This document shows, in pieces, positions 54,560-64,000 of a DNA stretch of 64,000 nt (position 1 is its first letter; the number at the start of each line of letters is the position of its first letter). Position numbers and translations under genes: made by a program. The stretch lies in the NCBI GenBank assembly GCA_963818475.1, contig CAWFSF010000002.1, positions 672,001 through 736,000 on the forward strand. Direction: 5' to 3'. This DNA is from Nitrospirota bacterium. Its GTDB lineage: Bacteria; Nitrospirota; UBA9217. The notes under the pieces are model-generated. The model was not told the origin of the DNA. It did no database searches and worked only from the letters and a program-made list of their open reading frames with translations.

Positions 54560-54838
54560 ATGAACATGAAGAAAGTTCTTGCACTGGTAGTAGTGGCACT
54601 ACTCGCTGCATCTGCAGTTCTGGCAGCCGACATCGTCACGCTCAGTTCGAAGATGGGTGACGTCACCTTTAACCACAAGGTCCACAGCACGGGAACGGAA
54701 TGCACTGTCTGCCATGGAGAGGGCACGCCCGGGAAGCTGACGCTCGAAAAAGATCCAGCACACAAATTATGCATCGCTTGCCATGAAACAAAGAAAGCCG
54801 GGCCTACAAAATGTCAGGACTGCCACAAGAAAAAATGA
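54560..54838 (+). CDS. Periplasmic triheme cytochrome c7 (PpcA-like)
   Basis: Signal peptide; GDVTFNHKVH, CTVCH, AHKLCIACH, GPTKCQDCH. Confidence 0.88.
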   Translation: MNMKKVLALVVVALLAASAVLAADIVTLSSKMGDVTFNHKVHSTGTECTVCHGEGTPGKLTLEKDPAHKLCIACHETKKAGPTKCQDCHKKK

Positions 54839-58375: not shown

Positions 58376-58478
58376 ATGAGATCAGTCCTGTCAATAAGTT
58401 TGCCCGATAAGGTTGCCCATGAGCTCGACCGGTTCGCAAAGAGCTAGGGGCGGAACAAGAGCGACGTTGTTAAAGAGC
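58376..58478 (+). pseudogene. Truncated CopG/ribbon-helix-helix antitoxin-like gene at the island border
   Basis: MRSVLSISLPDKVAHELDRFAKS*GRNKSDVVKE; AGGAGG RBS; TTGACA at 58329; internal TAG stop. Confidence 0.65.
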
Positions 58479-58712
58479 GGACGACGCAACGGGTGTAAAA
58501 ACGTTATATAGGCGCCCTAAGGGGGGGCGGCCAGGGCGATACATACAATCCGTTTGACACGATAATTAAATAGGCCTAAGATTAAAATACCACTGTGTAT
58601 TTTCAAGCCCCCGTGTTACAGAAACGTGGGCCGCAAAGGCAGAATAATGAGCTTTGCTCGCTTCTTAACTGAAATCCACGTTTTGAGAATAGCAAGAGAA
58701 GGGGTGTAATAC

Positions 58713-59756
58713 TTGGATATTCTGAATAATAATAGTTTGCGGAAGACTCCAGTTTATGATGTCTACTGGCGTTTTGCAGCTGAGCGGCAGAATATATTCT
58801 TTAACCGGCTTCTTCAAGAAAAAGCACCTTGGACTATGGATCCCATAATGGCTAAATACAAGTTTACCAATACGTACAGAGTGTTGGATAGGGTGAGTCA
58901 GTTTCTGATTTCCAATATAATTAATCCCGATATGGAAAGTGATCTGTCGGATGAGGATAAGCTCTTCAGAATACTCTTATATAAAATCTTCAATAAGATT
59001 CAAACATGGCAATTGCTTGAGGACGCACTTGGGGAACTCTCATGGCGTAGGTATTCTTTCCAAGAGTACGACAGGGTCTTGAGTGCAGCTTTTCAAAATG
59101 GCACTATCTATTCTGCTGCATACATTATGGCATCCGGGAAGAGTGTATTCGGTTGCGAACGAAAGCATCAGAATCACCTGAAGTTACTCGAATACATGAT
59201 GAAGAGCAACATAACCATGAAAGTTGTATCGTCGCAGTCTATGGCTCAACTCTATAATGTGCTGATATCATATCCGCTTGTTGGGCCATTCTTAGCCTAC
59301 CAGTATGCAACAGACATAAATTATAGTTGGCTTACGGACTTTTCAGAGAAAGATTTCGTGGTTGCTGGGCCTGGTGCTCGCGATGGAATAGCAAAGTGTT
59401 TTTCTAATAGAGCATCCTATTCAGATGAAGTTATAATTCGCTCTATGATGGAAAATCAGAATGCTGAATTTGAACGTTTAGGGTTGGATTTCAAAAGTCT
59501 GTTCGGAAGGCCACTACAGCTAATCGACTGCCAGAACATATTTTGTGAAGTCGGAAAATATGCTCGCATCTCACATCCCGACATTAAGGACAAAAGTGGA
59601 CGATTGAAAATTAAGCAGCTCTATCGCACTTCTGGAGCCATCCTCCCACCGTCTTTTCCAGAAAAATGGAGGCTATCAACTGCCGTACACACATTTACTA
59701 ATACTCACCTAGTTCAAGCAAGACTTCGGGGGGGATATTCACTAGAGTTAGGGTGA
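58713..59756 (+). CDS. aGPT-PPlase1-like (alpha-glutamyl/putrescinyl thymine) DNA base hypermodification protein
   Basis: YWRFAAERQ..F, PWT.DPI...YKFTN.YR..DRVSQ, IYSAAYIM, GPFLAYQY..D.NYS, VVAGPGA.DGI, LIDCQN.FCE..KYAR. Confidence 0.8.
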   Translation: MDILNNNSLRKTPVYDVYWRFAAERQNIFFNRLLQEKAPWTMDPIMAKYKFTNTYRVLDRVSQFLISNIINPDMESDLSDEDKLFRILLYKIFNKIQTWQLLEDALGELSWRRYSFQEYDRVLSAAFQNGTIYSAAYIMASGKSVFGCERKHQNHLKLLEYMMKSNITMKVVSSQSMAQLYNVLISYPLVGPFLAYQYATDINYSWLTDFSEKDFVVAGPGARDGIAKCFSNRASYSDEVIIRSMMENQNAEFERLGLDFKSLFGRPLQLIDCQNIFCEVGKYARISHPDIKDKSGRLKIKQLYRTSGAILPPSFPEKWRLSTAVHTFTNTHLVQARLRGGYSLELG

Positions 59757-59919
59757 GAAATGCCGACCATGTGATTTAATCAAGGACATGATGGCCATTA
59801 TCGGTAGTGATGCGCGTGAATTACATGGATATTTGGCCTGTTATCTCGTTTATTTCAAGCGACGATTTTAACCTGAAAAGGGGCTACGCAGGCATGGCTC
59901 GAGTATCGCGAGGATAAAA

Positions 59920-60417
59920 ATGAGCACAACTAATACAAAGAACGTTTTCATTAGTCATCACCACGAAGACGATGCACACGTTGACAAGTTGACAAATTTG
60001 CTTAGCAAGAAAGGATTTAACATCAGAAATAGTTCCATCCGAGCAAAACCAGCGAATCAGGAGCGTTTAGAAAAGGGACTTATCAAGGAGGCAGTGCTCA
60101 AACGTTTGCTCCGGATGAAGATATCCTGGGCAGGGTCGGTTATAGTCCTAGTTGGTAAGGAGACACACTCGCGCCCCTGGGTAAACTGGGAAATCGATCA
60201 GGCGCATAAGCAGGGGAAGAACATTGTAGGCATTTATGAGCATGGACTCAAGGACAAGGTTGATCTCCCGCCTTTTTTAGAAAAGTACAGAACGTCGCAA
60301 GTTGTTGGTTGGGATTCGGATGCTATTATCGACGCGATTGAAGGAAAATCAGTTTTTCAGAATCCCGATGGGACACCTTCTCCTCGGAATGACGGACCTC
60401 ACATAACGTGCAAGTAG
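59920..60417 (+). CDS. TIR-like protein (DUF1863/MTH538, Thoeris ThsB-type)
   Basis: NVFISH, VIVLVGKET..RPWVNWEI......K.IVGI with the catalytic Glu retained. Confidence 0.88.
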   Translation: MSTTNTKNVFISHHHEDDAHVDKLTNLLSKKGFNIRNSSIRAKPANQERLEKGLIKEAVLKRLLRMKISWAGSVIVLVGKETHSRPWVNWEIDQAHKQGKNIVGIYEHGLKDKVDLPPFLEKYRTSQVVGWDSDAIIDAIEGKSVFQNPDGTPSPRNDGPHITCK

Positions 60418-61067
60418 AATCCACAAAATATTTGTACATCTATGTTGTAGATCGAGATTTCGGGTTCGCTCCAAACCCGTTCCATGGGTACTGCACTTTG
60501 GCTACATGTAAGCCAGACATCAGGAGAACAGCTCATGTTGGCGACTGGGTTATGGGCGTTGGCGGACGACGTTTGAATGCGACGGGAAGATGCATATACT
60601 TGATGAAAGTGTCCGAGATTCTTACCTTTGATGAATATTGGTCAGATAAAAGGTTTTGGGTCAAAAAGCCCATCCGAAACGGAAGCCTTGTGATGATGGT
60701 CGGTGACAATGTTTACCATCGGAATAATATCGAAGAGGACTGGACACAAGAAGACTCACACCATAGCAACGAGGATGGCTCTATCAACCATGAGAATGTA
60801 AGGATAGACACAAAATCTATTAATGTCCTTATTTCACATCACTTCTACTATTTCGGTAGCGTCGCGCCAGTAGTCGATTTGTCAACTATTGGCTATAAGA
60901 ATGGAATAGGCCATCGGAAAAAGTCACTGGAAGATTCTAATGTAGCTGTTCTTGTGAAGAAGATTGAAGATCAGTTCAGAAGAGATAGGAATACGGTTAT
61001 TGCTGACCCCATCAATTTTGAGCATGCTTCAAAGCGAGTTGATCAGGGTACTGGGAAAATTAGATGA
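60408..61067 (+). CDS. Nmad2 (nucleotide modification associated domain 2) protein
   Basis: YVVDRDFGFAPNPFHGYCTLATCKPDIR...VGDWV.G, GDN.YH, VLIS..FYYFG. Confidence 0.82.
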   Translation: MQVESTKYLYIYVVDRDFGFAPNPFHGYCTLATCKPDIRRTAHVGDWVMGVGGRRLNATGRCIYLMKVSEILTFDEYWSDKRFWVKKPIRNGSLVMMVGDNVYHRNNIEEDWTQEDSHHSNEDGSINHENVRIDTKSINVLISHHFYYFGSVAPVVDLSTIGYKNGIGHRKKSLEDSNVAVLVKKIEDQFRRDRNTVIADPINFEHASKRVDQGTGKIR

Positions 61068-61109
61068 GTATATCGAGAGGAGCATGTATTCTGAAAGGAG
61101 GAATTATCC

Positions 61110-61748
61110 TTGCCGAATCTTATCAAAATAGCTTTTGATTATACAAAGCCGTCGATGACTATCGAATCCGACTGGTTATTGTTCATTGTTTTATTAGTAA
61201 TCATTCTGCTGGTTGTTATATTGCGTAAGAAGGGATTCTTGTCATGGTTTAACCGATATGATATGGAAGTCGAGATATCAGGAGCACCGAAAATAAAGGT
61301 CAAGGTAGAAAGAAATAATGAAAATCTATTCATTGCCAATCGAATATACATAGAACTGACAACTAGGAAGGCAGCAATTCCTTTTGACGAAGATAATGAT
61401 GTAATCGCAGAAGTTTATGACTCATGGTATAAGTTGTTTGGAATCATTCGTGAAGAAATAAAGAGCGTACCTGGTAGATATCTAAAAGACCACGATCCTA
61501 CTTCTGCCCTAATCGGCCTCACTACAAAAATACTGAATGAGGGATTAAGGCCTCATTTGACACTATATCAGGCAAGGTTTAGAAAATGGTACGAAGAAGA
61601 AAAGGAGCGGCCAGAAAATAAACTATTATCACCTCATGAGATTCAGAGGAAATATCCCGATTACAAAAAATTAGTTGATTCGATCAAACAAGTTAATAAA
61701 ACCCTGACTGAGTTTGCAACCGAGTTGAACAAATTGATAAAAGGTTAG
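61110..61748 (+). CDS. Single-TM hypothetical protein, candidate effector
   Basis: N-terminal TM helix; IYIELTTRK, DVIAEVYDSWY..F...RE.IK, LNEGLRPHLT.YQARFRKWY. Confidence 0.75.
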   Translation: MPNLIKIAFDYTKPSMTIESDWLLFIVLLVIILLVVILRKKGFLSWFNRYDMEVEISGAPKIKVKVERNNENLFIANRIYIELTTRKAAIPFDEDNDVIAEVYDSWYKLFGIIREEIKSVPGRYLKDHDPTSALIGLTTKILNEGLRPHLTLYQARFRKWYEEEKERPENKLLSPHEIQRKYPDYKKLVDSIKQVNKTLTEFATELNKLIKG

Positions 61749-61834
61749 CTGACAAGACCGCAGCGCCGTTCTTTTCAAACCCTATAGGTGCGACACTAAA
61801 CTGGTAGATTTCGAATTTATTCTGTGAAGATGAA

Positions 61835-63400
61835 TCAAGTGATAATTTTTGGAAAATAAGTTTGATATTCAGTGATTTTATCTTTGAGCTTGCTTTGATC
61901 TTCCTCAATAAACGGTAAGATCTTCAGAAATTTTTCATAGGGAATTGCAATACCATTGATTGTAACGACGGGATGACTGCCTGGCTTCGCTTCATATTTG
62001 TACGTTGTTAACGTTTCATCCTTAACCGTAAATTCTAGCGTAAATTTTTTTTCTGTTGAATCGACCCCTATCCTCAATATTTTATTGAACATTTCGACTT
62101 TTGCTTTAAAGAACCCCACCAGTGACTTTTGCTTATATTGGGCGTCCCTTTGTTTGAATTCATAGTCAATAGAAACCATTGTTTCAGAAAACTCATTTAG
62201 TGTAACTGATTCTCCTGGATCGTGAAATGCCATAAGATCAAATGTCGGCCGCCCCCAAAACTGAATTTCATCTACAATCAATAAAAGAAAAGAGAACGTA
62301 TTTGGTTTGAAATGATAAATTTCGTGGCAGGTGTGAGATGCTATCGATCTTAATATTTCTCTTCGGATTATGAATTGACGAGCTTCTTCTTCACCTTTTA
62401 ATGTATCGATATTATCAAAATCAAAGTTGGTTTCAAGAAAGTAAACTAAATTTTTTGCAAGAACTAAGCAACTTATTAAACCATGATCAAATCGTTCGAA
62501 TGACCTTGAAAACTTCAGATAATACTTGGCTTGAATGTGTGTACTAAAAGCGTTTTGAGTTTTAGTAAATAAGCGTTTAATAACTCCATTGTCACTTTTC
62601 TTAACACGCGAACTCAAGTATTTTAAAATTGCATCATTAATAAACTGGTTTTGTTGCGGGAATGCAAAGGAAAACTCGTCGAGTTTTGTTTTTGCAAAAA
62701 ACTTCATCATTTTTTTTAAGTTATCATTTATTTTATCTACCATTCCCAATGGATAACCCAAATCGTGTGTTAATGCTATTATGCACCATATAGCATCCTC
62801 CTCACCTTCAAACAAAACACCATTGTTTCGTCGAGATATATTAAGTTTCTTTTCGGCATCTTGACCTTCTGTTATATCAATATTTGTAATGTGGGGCTTT
62901 ATGTCTTTGTGATCGAAAATATCAATTGGAAATTTATCATCGAAAGAATTAAAAAGTAGGAATTGACCTGTAAGCCAGACTCTAATTAAATGGTAGACAT
63001 GATCTCTATAAAACTGTTCCGCGCCATATAATAACCTTTCAAATTCAATAAAAGTCTTAAAATAATCTTTAAGAGAATAAACACCTAAAGAGCCTTCACT
63101 AATTATTCCATAGGCAGATTTAAGGTCTGGTGGTCTTTTATTAGGTGGGAACTCTGTTAAATCATGCCATTTTAGATATTTAATAGCGTCGATCAAAAGA
63201 CGTTCCCAAAGATTTAAGACAATAATTGGGTCTATCTTTGACGTATCAAAAATATCTTTTAGCTGGGTTTTATCATTTGTATCAGGAAATTTACTTATAA
63301 TTTTTACGGTTTCTTCGGATAAAAATTGAATTCTCCCTTGCTCCTTTTTTAAAAAATCAATAAGAAACTTATCGTCAAGTTTTTGATTAAGTGGAGCCAT
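61835..63400 (-). CDS. HD-superfamily metal-dependent phosphohydrolase
   Basis: YRDHVYH..RV, ALTHDLGYP, DHGLIS, IASH, LLLIVDEIQ.WGRP. Confidence 0.72.
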   Translation of the reverse strand: MAPLNQKLDDKFLIDFLKKEQGRIQFLSEETVKIISKFPDTNDKTQLKDIFDTSKIDPIIVLNLWERLLIDAIKYLKWHDLTEFPPNKRPPDLKSAYGIISEGSLGVYSLKDYFKTFIEFERLLYGAEQFYRDHVYHLIRVWLTGQFLLFNSFDDKFPIDIFDHKDIKPHITNIDITEGQDAEKKLNISRRNNGVLFEGEEDAIWCIIALTHDLGYPLGMVDKINDNLKKMMKFFAKTKLDEFSFAFPQQNQFINDAILKYLSSRVKKSDNGVIKRLFTKTQNAFSTHIQAKYYLKFSRSFERFDHGLISCLVLAKNLVYFLETNFDFDNIDTLKGEEEARQFIIRREILRSIASHTCHEIYHFKPNTFSFLLLIVDEIQFWGRPTFDLMAFHDPGESVTLNEFSETMVSIDYEFKQRDAQYKQKSLVGFFKAKVEMFNKILRIGVDSTEKKFTLEFTVKDETLTTYKYEAKPGSHPVVTINGIAIPYEKFLKILPFIEEDQSKLKDKITEYQTYFPKIIT

Positions 63401-63504
63401 AATCGTTATCTCCGAAAAATACGACAACCACAATGTCGTTGGTCAAAGCTCTATCGAAAACCACAAGCAATAATTTAGACCAGCATATTTACTTTTTAAA
63501 AAAG

Positions 63505-64000
63505 CTATGAGGCCGCCTGTTTGCGCGGAGGAGTTACTTGAATTTGATTTGTTTTTTGGAGGGGGCAAAGTGGATCTGGCCCATGGTAAATGCTGCCAAA
63601 TTTATAATAGCGTTGCGCGACACATCGGCCATTGCAGTAGTTTGATTCGGAGCAACTATTACAACCACTCACCATTGTTACATCAAGATCACGTAGTTGT
63701 TCTAATTCTGAACTATGATGCCATATAGTCTCTAGGGATTGCTTATTTATATTAGCCAACCCAAACTTAGGTGCATGCTTAAAAGCAGGACAAGGTACGG
63801 CTGTGCCATCATAGCTGATTAGTAGAGTAGAAATTCCAGCTTTACATTGAACAGGCGTTATCGTTCTATCCACCATCGAACAGAAATTCATCGGACACCC
63901 TGTTCTAATCTGAACAAAGTCACGAAGCTCGTTTTTAATGGCGACAACTTCATTTATGAATTGATTGAATTCTGTTTGATTTAACTCAAGCCGTTGTTTA
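63505..64000 (-). CDS. Radical SAM protein with SPASM domain, 5' part outside the window
   Basis: CKAG....ISYDG...PC, NI...SL..IW, CNSC....YCNGRC, DPLC; frame open to the window edge. Confidence 0.82.
   Translation of the reverse strand, partial: KQRLELNQTEFNQFINEVVAIKNELRDFVQIRTGCPMNFCSMVDRTITPVQCKAGISTLLISYDGTAVPCPAFKHAPKFGLANINKQSLETIWHHSSELEQLRDLDVTMVSGCNSCSESNYCNGRCVAQRYYKFGSIYHGPDPLCPLQKTNQIQVTPPRKQAAS

Follow-up and report, generated by a model that had tools for sequence, protein, structure and literature searches.

A low-GC island in a Nitrospirota genome pairs a ThsB-type TIR and Nmad2 with a candidate membrane receptor-effector of an unannotated family

Two described systems lie closest to the locus reported here. 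DS-4 (working identifier NTTI) of E. coli was reported as defensive, with replication, in the text and Tables S6-S8 of DeWeirdt et al. (Science 2026, PMC13092281); it encodes a thymidylate synthase (TS, 361 aa), a dNMP kinase (185 aa), HMUDK_hel (340 aa), a TIR protein (163 aa) that ends in Cys and bears the DefenseFinder label ThsB_Global, and Nmad2 (220 aa). Thoeris is divided into types I-XI with 29 predicted effectors in the text of Yirmiya et al. (bioRxiv 10.64898/2025.12.03.692087). The stretch of DNA analyzed here (the window) comprises 64,000 nucleotides from a Nitrospirota bacterium (assembly GCA_963818475.1, contig CAWFSF010000002.1, positions 672,001 to 736,000). A low-GC island at its end carries on the + strand, in this order, the genes for HMUDK_hel, a small TIR protein, Nmad2 and a transmembrane (TM) protein whose soluble part is a predicted four-helix bundle (Table 1). 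Window and DS-4 share the order HMUDK_hel, TIR, Nmad2, a TIR ending in Cys and the overlap of the TIR and Nmad2 genes, and differ in that the window holds the TM/four-helix-bundle gene and a convergent pair of genes (radical SAM and a 532-aa protein) instead of the two nucleotide enzymes. On the most economical reading, HMUDK_hel-TIR-Nmad2 is the conserved sensing/generating core of a family that includes DS-4.

TIR and Nmad2 formed an obligate pair. The TAG stop of the TIR gene (60415-60417) lies beyond the GTG start of Nmad2 (60408-60410), which reproduces the overlap noted in a preliminary description made from the sequence alone and sets it at 10 nt, with Nmad2 translationally coupled to the TIR. 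The GTG start was supported by the E. coli homologue, which aligned residue 1 to residue 1, and by the PF18753 match, which begins at residue 8 (profile position 3). Metagenome contigs were scanned with an Nmad2 alignment and the best 80 of 589 confirmed stretches were retained. Wherever a locus reached at least 450 bp upstream of Nmad2, a TIR gene directly preceded it (68 of 68; the 12 others were too short), an arrangement far beyond chance; these TIRs measured about 161-170 aa and overlapped Nmad2 or lay a few bases from it. In this census and in that centred on the TM gene (below), open reading frames (ORFs) were called mechanically and families were assigned by profiles seeded from the window's own proteins; both 80-locus sets are best-scoring subsets that lean towards close relatives, and relatives are not independent.

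The TIR protein belongs with ThsB. It matched PF08937 (ThsB_TIR) at 82.3 bits (cut-off 21.2), the PADLOC ThsB model PDLC00418 spanned its full length (1.3e-58), and its nearest solved relatives in a profile search of PDB sequences were bacterial TIR proteins (8wcf, 2.5e-12; ThsB1 9b7d, 2.6e-10; ThsB 6lhy, 2.8e-10), MilB being absent from the matches at E <= 1. The W-V-x-W-E-I motif with its catalytic Glu, already pointed out from the letters, reads W87-V-N-W-E91-I (WVNWEI); HMMER aligned E91 (codon 60190-60192) to the ThsB1 Glu, and this residue was invariant in 54 of 54 Nmad2-coupled TIRs.

Nmad2-coupled TIRs also stood together in a maximum likelihood tree of 127 TIRs (rows), forming one group (support 94/95) that was recovered in 94% of bootstrap trees. 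Their sister was a 56-row clade (98/99) holding 44 of the 48 TM-adjacent TIRs, and the joint clade was supported at 98/92, while distal TIRs of tandem arrays made up a separate clade. A Cys within the last three residues was the hallmark of the Nmad2-coupled group (85/87, the two exceptions being a masked and a truncated ORF; C164 in the window, 60409-60411), and a C-terminal Cys was found in 8/48 TM-adjacent TIRs and 1/38 other TIRs. The overlapping start codon does not account for this Cys, which is kept also where the genes do not overlap. Subclades of TM-adjacent TIRs possessed conserved tails of their own (CxVCxxTH, NRTxxxWQ, RPMRRxNS, QMxxNTCE). The TIR tails could be regulatory, or could contribute to a metal site shared with C29, C34 and H119 of Nmad2.

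Nmad2 had initially been cast as a sensor of modified nucleotides or DNA, and the part of this that stood is its likeness to modified-base readers. A fold search with its model (pLDDT 90.7, 57 sequences) in VIA-align brought 53 of 48,161 chains to Z >= 2, and ranks 1-26 (Z 7.3 to 3.4, 120-137 aligned residues) were nearly all YTH, ASCH and EVE domains, the McrB N-terminal domain and the sensor domains of modification-dependent nucleases (VcaM4I, PD-T4-3), with unrelated folds from about Z 3.2. Foldseek gave the same families (best E about 1e-2), while the search of PDB sequences gave no real match. Nmad2 is therefore predicted to adopt a PUA-like (YTH/ASCH/EVE) fold, an assignment at fold level and at moderate Z. 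Compared with PUA-like readers, to which its predicted fold aligns over those 120-137 residues at Z 6-7.3, Nmad2 lacks sequence-level membership, has an invariant polar set of its own (D17, C29, C34, R39, K86, D100, N101, H119, D134) and is a free-standing partner of a TIR, unfused to a nuclease. The invariant set suggests metal binding or catalysis, so that sensing is one plausible role among several, beside those of co-enzyme or signal processor.

No Nmad2 homologue was found in 50,697 GenBank phage genomes, and a full-text literature search returned Nmad2 in unrelated papers only. The Pfam names Nmad and HMUDK are drawn from DNA-hypermodification contexts; these families and SLOG reportedly originate in papers of the Aravind group (NAR, 2013 and 2015). 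Distant Nmad2 genes (34-53% identity) were observed on viral contigs (loci L168-L186), 16 of the 19 without an upstream TIR. Their neighbors there were either DNA methylases, a family A DNA polymerase, MazG_C and a UDG-like protein or a MotA/OmpA-like pair.

The TM gene follows closely. Its TTG start lies 42 nt past the Nmad2 stop and is preceded by an AAGGAGG ribosome-binding site (RBS), both as first described, and the start is supported by homologues that keep the N-terminus from residue 4 on. The protein had no Pfam, PADLOC or NCBIfam match. Its family counts at least 923 homologues at E <= 1e-3, none of them with a Pfam domain, and members 60-70% identical occur across Bacteroidota, Thermodesulfobacteriota and Methanosarcinales. 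The AlphaFold2 model (pLDDT 91.8, 61 sequences) comprises a beta-hairpin (5-20), a TM helix (22-40), a second hairpin (49-67) and the four-helix bundle (70-211), and the basic residues that follow the TM helix (RKKGF..) point to a cytoplasmic location of the bundle. Residues invariant across 61 diverse members include R86, K87, D97, Y103, S105, W106, R114, P148, H149, T151, Q154 and W160. Soluble forms without the TM helix (143-175 aa) were also found directly after Nmad2 and were joined to the TM forms by hhalign (probability 98.9%, E 2e-17).

The soluble domain, called unrecognised in the preliminary description, stayed so: Foldseek found no match of the bundle in the PDB at E <= 1e-3. VIA-align scored the protein best against a designed bundle (Z 9.2) and the ClyA pore (Z 9.0, root-mean-square deviation 8.2). 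A ClyA-like pore-former was not adopted as a reading, both scores being below the stated noise level for helical bundles. Weak KinB_sensor Pfam matches appeared in 15 of the 61 members (best E 3.6e-4) and indicate a 'sensor-like bundle' only. A search for longer forms retrieved one 434-aa protein with an ABC ATPase domain.

Gene neighborhoods tied this family to TIR genes. A pattern scan with one genome per species gave 122 confirmed loci, the best 80 of which were retained and their ORFs of at least 60 aa classed with profiles from the window proteins and their first matches. A TIR gene lay directly upstream on the same strand in 47 loci, a TIR-Nmad2 pair in 7, a TIR gene directly downstream in 9 and within 2.5 kb in a further 9, leaving 8 with no TIR found, 3 of which had less than 1 kb of upstream sequence. 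The TM gene was thus directly adjacent to TIR or TIR-Nmad2 in 63/80 and TIR-linked in 72/80, across many phyla and including archaea. The preliminary description had put the TM protein in the effector (ThsA) position and had staked that placement beforehand on the linkage of its homologues to TIR genes; these 72 genomes, in which the TIRs are of ThsB type, bear it out. In the usual operon the TM gene came after ThsB-type genes, one to four of them in tandem. Larger TIR partners were Roc-COR-TIR, TIR-Sel1 and a 1345-aa TIR protein, and on an Aureispira plasmid the homologue (RefSeq label 'hypothetical protein') came after five TIR/NDT genes, beside CRISPR-cas.

TIR-Nmad2 itself was found with exchangeable neighbors. 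Across the 80 Nmad2-centred loci these were a MazG_C protein (28), HMUDK_hel (27), a 223-aa protein of no Pfam family (24), the four-helix-bundle family (22), a TIR_2-SLOG cluster 2 protein of about 674 aa (17), TS-like (15) and dCTP-deaminase-like (11) proteins, SLOG cluster 3 (9), a 390-aa TIR_2 protein (9), radical SAM (5) and a DNMK-like kinase (5). Candidate receivers were nearly mutually exclusive among the 28 well-flanked loci (at least 3 kb on each side): TIR_2-SLOG2 in 10, SLOG3 plus TIR_2 in 6, the four-helix-bundle family in 4, two kinds together in 1 and none in 7. TIR-Nmad2 was often followed by the 674-aa TIR_2-SLOG cluster 2 protein and MazG_C (e.g., L154 6720-9938, L140 6849-8602), and alternatively by SLOG cluster 3 and the 390-aa TIR_2 protein (in the range L084-L163). 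The SLOG/TIR_2 modules, none of which is present in the window, look like alternative receiver/effector modules. SLOG is the receptor of TIR signals in ThsA, according to the text of Yirmiya et al. (2025, bioRxiv 10.64898/2025.12.03.692087). Acting as a generator whose receivers can be exchanged, some of them SLOG carriers, TIR-Nmad2 resembles a signalling system.

HMUDK_hel, the helical domain of 5-hydroxymethyldeoxyuridine (5-hmdU) DNA kinases without the kinase domain, completes the conserved HMUDK_hel-TIR-Nmad2 module as its third member. It occurred in 13 of the 28 well-flanked Nmad2 loci, and the 80 TM-centred loci gave 17 HMUDK_hel ORF matches against 18 loci with Nmad2. DS-4-type clusters were found in 16 of 5,426 complete E. 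coli genomes. Window TIR and Nmad2 were each 57% identical to an E. coli DS-4-type example (L192, NZ_CM129870.1), and the HMUDK_hel proteins were 29% identical (E 2e-26). No thymidylate synthase or dNMP kinase was matched among the six island proteins scanned (the 171-aa helix-turn-helix (HTH)-like protein lay outside the scan). Versions with six genes exist that combine the five of DS-4 with the TM protein (e.g., L151). The E. coli cluster is set in the context of a conjugative element, and next to it runs a separate, divergent operon rich in TIRs, made up of three TIR-domain genes together with hypothetical genes (L192 12222-15836). This operon probably lies outside the tested system, because the cloned DS-4 unit, as given in Table S8, runs from TS to Nmad2 only; it could be the natural effector arm.

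The arrangement of the genes, their family links and folds, and a synteny that is conserved while effector partners alternate are demonstrated above; from these we infer the biochemical steps, trigger, ligand and killing mode as follows. Together the four + strand genes, acquired horizontally, would act against phage as a signalling system of the Thoeris kind. Upon infection, the TIR-Nmad2 pair would make a small molecule derived from NAD, Nmad2 most likely recognizing a nucleic-acid or nucleotide infection cue and, less likely, making or maturing the signal, with HMUDK_hel as an accessory of this sensing/generating module. The TM protein, with its single TM helix, would bind the molecule through its cytoplasmic four-helix bundle, for which R86, R114, R147, E82, S105 and N143, conserved family-wide, form a candidate pocket. 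Binding would lead to oligomerization and loss of membrane integrity, and the infected cell would stop or die before phage release. That this is a defence locus is very probable; the full chain, from a TIR-made signal read by the bundle to membrane damage, falls just on the probable side, and within it the role of Nmad2 as sensor rather than co-enzyme is tentative, a little short of an even chance. A more specific version seems possible yet on the unlikely side: Nmad2, maybe with HMUDK_hel, would detect a modified or phage-specific nucleic acid or nucleotide and license the TIR, perhaps via its invariant C-terminal Cys, and a new receptor fold, the bundle, existing in membrane-anchored and soluble forms, would read the NAD-derived signal.

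Several observations weigh against this signalling chain. Only 5 of the 28 well-flanked TIR-Nmad2 loci contained the four-helix-bundle family, and 7 had no recognised receiver. A ligand-binding role of the bundle is suggested by conservation and context, while structure and profile searches gave it no significant match, and the search for longer forms showed no fusion of a TIR with the TM family, which is weak evidence. DS-4 protects without the TM protein, so TIR-Nmad2 needs no such effector, and the thymidylate synthase and dNMP kinase of DS-4 point to nucleotide chemistry. The sole DS-4 row in Table S7 of that source concerns phage lambda (-log efficiency of plating 0.93, small plaques); lambda has no hypermodified DNA, and this weak effect on it argues against a strict hypermodified-DNA trigger.

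The main rival takes its lead from DS-4 and places the locus in nucleotide modification or poisoning: the TIR would be an N-glycosidase of NDT/MilB type or a base-exchange enzyme acting on (modified) deoxynucleotides, Nmad2 and HMUDK_hel would bind or process the modified base, the nucleotide pool or the DNA would be altered, and the TM protein would be an unrelated or secondary add-on. DS-4 does unite TS and dNMP kinase with HMUDK_hel, TIR and Nmad2, and in Table S8 of PMC13092281 the authors' HHpred call for the TIR is NDT/CMP N-glycosidase-like. TIR-Nmad2 loci are moreover enriched in TS-like, dCTP-deaminase-like, DNMK-like and MazG_C proteins (15, 11, 5 and 28 of 80, as counted above), and TIR-less distant Nmad2 genes sit beside methylases, family A polymerase and MazG_C on viral contigs. 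The window itself is at odds with this, since no TS, kinase, deaminase or MazG gene was matched in it, and so is the profile of its TIR, which is nearest to ThsB and bacterial TIRs with MilB unseen at E <= 1. A sister clade made of TIRs dedicated to the TM family, the alternation of SLOG-type receivers with that family and the missing Nmad2 homologues among GenBank phage genomes speak in the same direction, and we regard the nucleotide explanation as unlikely.

The polarity could also be reversed, the TIR being a killer that depletes NAD+ and Nmad2, the membrane protein or both its activating sensors. A PUA-like fold would suit a sensor, and some unverified 'Thoeris-like' TIRs may be NADase effectors according to the text of Yirmiya et al. 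(bioRxiv 10.64898/2025.12.03.692087). Such a killer would sit poorly with a small single-domain TIR that falls in the ThsB clade and with a TM family found beside as many as four TIR genes in tandem, drawn from two clades, which is the Thoeris pattern of one effector to several sensor/generators; the alternating partners elsewhere, in addition, carry SLOG receptors fused to TIR_2 effector domains. This arrangement is judged improbable, and the same holds for two independent neighbouring systems, namely a truncated DS-4-type module next to an orphan Thoeris-type effector that lost its own TIR. Defence genes do cluster, and two loci (L004, L007) carry a TIR-TIR-TM operon plus a separate HMUDK_hel-TIR-Nmad2 module. 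Against chance proximity, Nmad2 directly precedes the TM family on the same strand in 7/80 TM-centred loci, the bundle family occurs in 22/80 Nmad2-centred loci, soluble forms directly after Nmad2 included, and in the window the 42-nt spacing, the strong RBS and the lack of a + strand terminator-like site join the two genes, in a genome with no other ThsB_TIR match.

The island (Table 1) had a GC of 0.31-0.46 in composition profiles, compared to about 0.56-0.63 in the flanks. It starts at about 58450, where the core genome begins upstream of HMUDK_hel, and extends about 1.5 kb beyond the window end to an IS110-like transposase gene of higher GC (430 aa; L002 8587-9879, -) that marks its far boundary and is followed by htpG. 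A search of 40 related genomes, of which 5 share the genus, 19 the family and 16 the phylum, recovered no Nmad2. Low GC, the neighbouring insertion sequence element and this absence from relatives identify the island as a horizontally acquired accessory. A scan for promoters and terminators was uninformative, with 8 promoter-like sites (8.8 expected) and no terminator-like site on the + strand. The genome, 91% complete, contained one ThsB_TIR match, one TM-family copy and, on another contig, two SIR2_2 matches; it gave no STALD match, and control genomes likewise gave none. The preliminary description had asked whether a thsA lies just outside the window: no thsA or SIR2-SLOG (STALD) protein occurred in the island or in the 13 kb past the window. 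Elsewhere in the window, a small ORF resembling a multihaem c7-type cytochrome, with several CxxCH motifs, was observed at 54560-54838 (+), with purL-like genes upstream, features that by resemblance may hint at a Desulfuromonadales/Geobacter-like host.

Table 1. Features of the low-GC island, in window coordinates
Feature	Position	Strand	Basis or remark
Low-GC island	58450..64000	.	Composition profiles, ORFs past window end
HMUDK_hel-only protein, 347 aa	58713..59756	+	PF18723 at 2.4e-104
ThsB-clade TIR, 165 aa	59920..60417	+	PF08937; PADLOC PDLC00418
Nmad2, 219 aa	60408..61067	+	PF18753 at 4.4e-69, 232 bits
AAGGAGG RBS	61095..61101	+	8 nt before TTG start of TM gene
Candidate receptor-effector (TM protein), 212 aa	61110..61748	+	Unannotated family
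532-aa protein, no Pfam family, HD-like motif	61835..63433	-	Convergent with TM gene
Radical SAM/SPASM gene, 361 aa in full	63505..64000, to about 64590	-	SPASM matches

On the - strand, the island carries a 171-aa HTH-like gene, which heads the operon just past the window end (L002 7601-8116, -), the radical SAM/SPASM gene and, downstream of the latter on the same strand, the gene of the 532-aa protein. This last protein had no Pfam, PADLOC or NCBIfam match and none among PDB sequences. A language-model search offered HD as a lead only (HD on 16% of the members, in a cluster scoring 0.93). In L012 a homologue of the 532-aa protein immediately precedes the TIR, and L003, L099, L127 and L169 each have one next to HMUDK_hel, TIR or Nmad2; the homologues of L099 and L127 come after a radical-SAM gene that shares 27-30% identity with that of the window, the same order as in the window. 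From this recurrence, the pair may be a further part of the system, a second effector or a signal-degrading enzyme.

The preliminary description, whose gene anatomy was retained throughout, had missed HMUDK_hel as part of the module, the homology to DS-4, the place of the TM protein as one of several alternative partners of TIR-Nmad2, and the convergent radical-SAM/532-aa genes that recur beside the module elsewhere. With these added, the finding joins two strands, DS-4, for which the text of PMC13092281 gives no mechanism, and the expanding Thoeris family of TIR signalling. If TIR-Nmad2 is a generator that feeds SLOG proteins or the bundle family, DS-4 becomes mechanistically testable; at least 923 'hypothetical' bacterial and archaeal proteins would gain an immune receptor-effector role, and the PUA-like Nmad2 with the terminal Cys of the TIR would be an example of a bacterial TIR switched on by a separate subunit. 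Should the licensing version hold, DS-4 and its relatives would be a branch of Thoeris in which the sensor is a subunit of its own, and the bundle family would be a widespread new effector type.

Comparison with ThsG (DUF6650, PF20355), the effector of type VI Thoeris, showed limited likeness. According to the text of Yirmiya et al., ThsG is small and mostly helical, with or without N-terminal TM helices, as is the TM family, and a short resemblance at motif level was seen (a hairpin, then a helix with a conserved Arg). A weak language-model lead also pointed to DUF6650 (0.77, the family being on 13% of cluster members). Membership was rejected at the sequence level: PF20355 matched 0 of 61 family members and nothing in three genomes that hold the family, and in hhalign against 48 DUF6650 proteins the TM forms reached a probability of 0.15% and the soluble forms 1%.

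With Thoeris at large the locus shares a small ThsB-clade TIR with a catalytic Glu that adjoins a non-enzymatic membrane protein, a TM family that elsewhere follows one to four tandem TIR genes, and a defence-island, mobile context. It differs from type I in having no SIR2-SLOG (STALD) protein near the TIR, and from type II, whose effector combines TM and Macro, in that the window protein had no Macro match and is modelled as an all-helical bundle after two hairpins. By Pfam, PADLOC and NCBIfam, the TM protein lacks the effector domains named in the text of Yirmiya et al. (SIR2-SLOG, Macro, caspase-like, DUF2270, DUF6650, SLATT, CMP hydrolase), a comparison that covers named domains, those of types III and IX being unnamed there; in Pfam, none of the 61 family members matched a described Thoeris effector type. 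An obligate Nmad2 partner and the HMUDK_hel accessory set the locus apart as well, Nmad being unmentioned in the text of Yirmiya et al. By gene content, the TM-family loci are laid out as in Thoeris, with one effector for several TIR sensor/generators, the effector being an unrecognised one. The most economical reading of the window is that the core it shares with DS-4 is wired to a Thoeris-type membrane receptor-effector rather than to nucleotide-metabolic genes.

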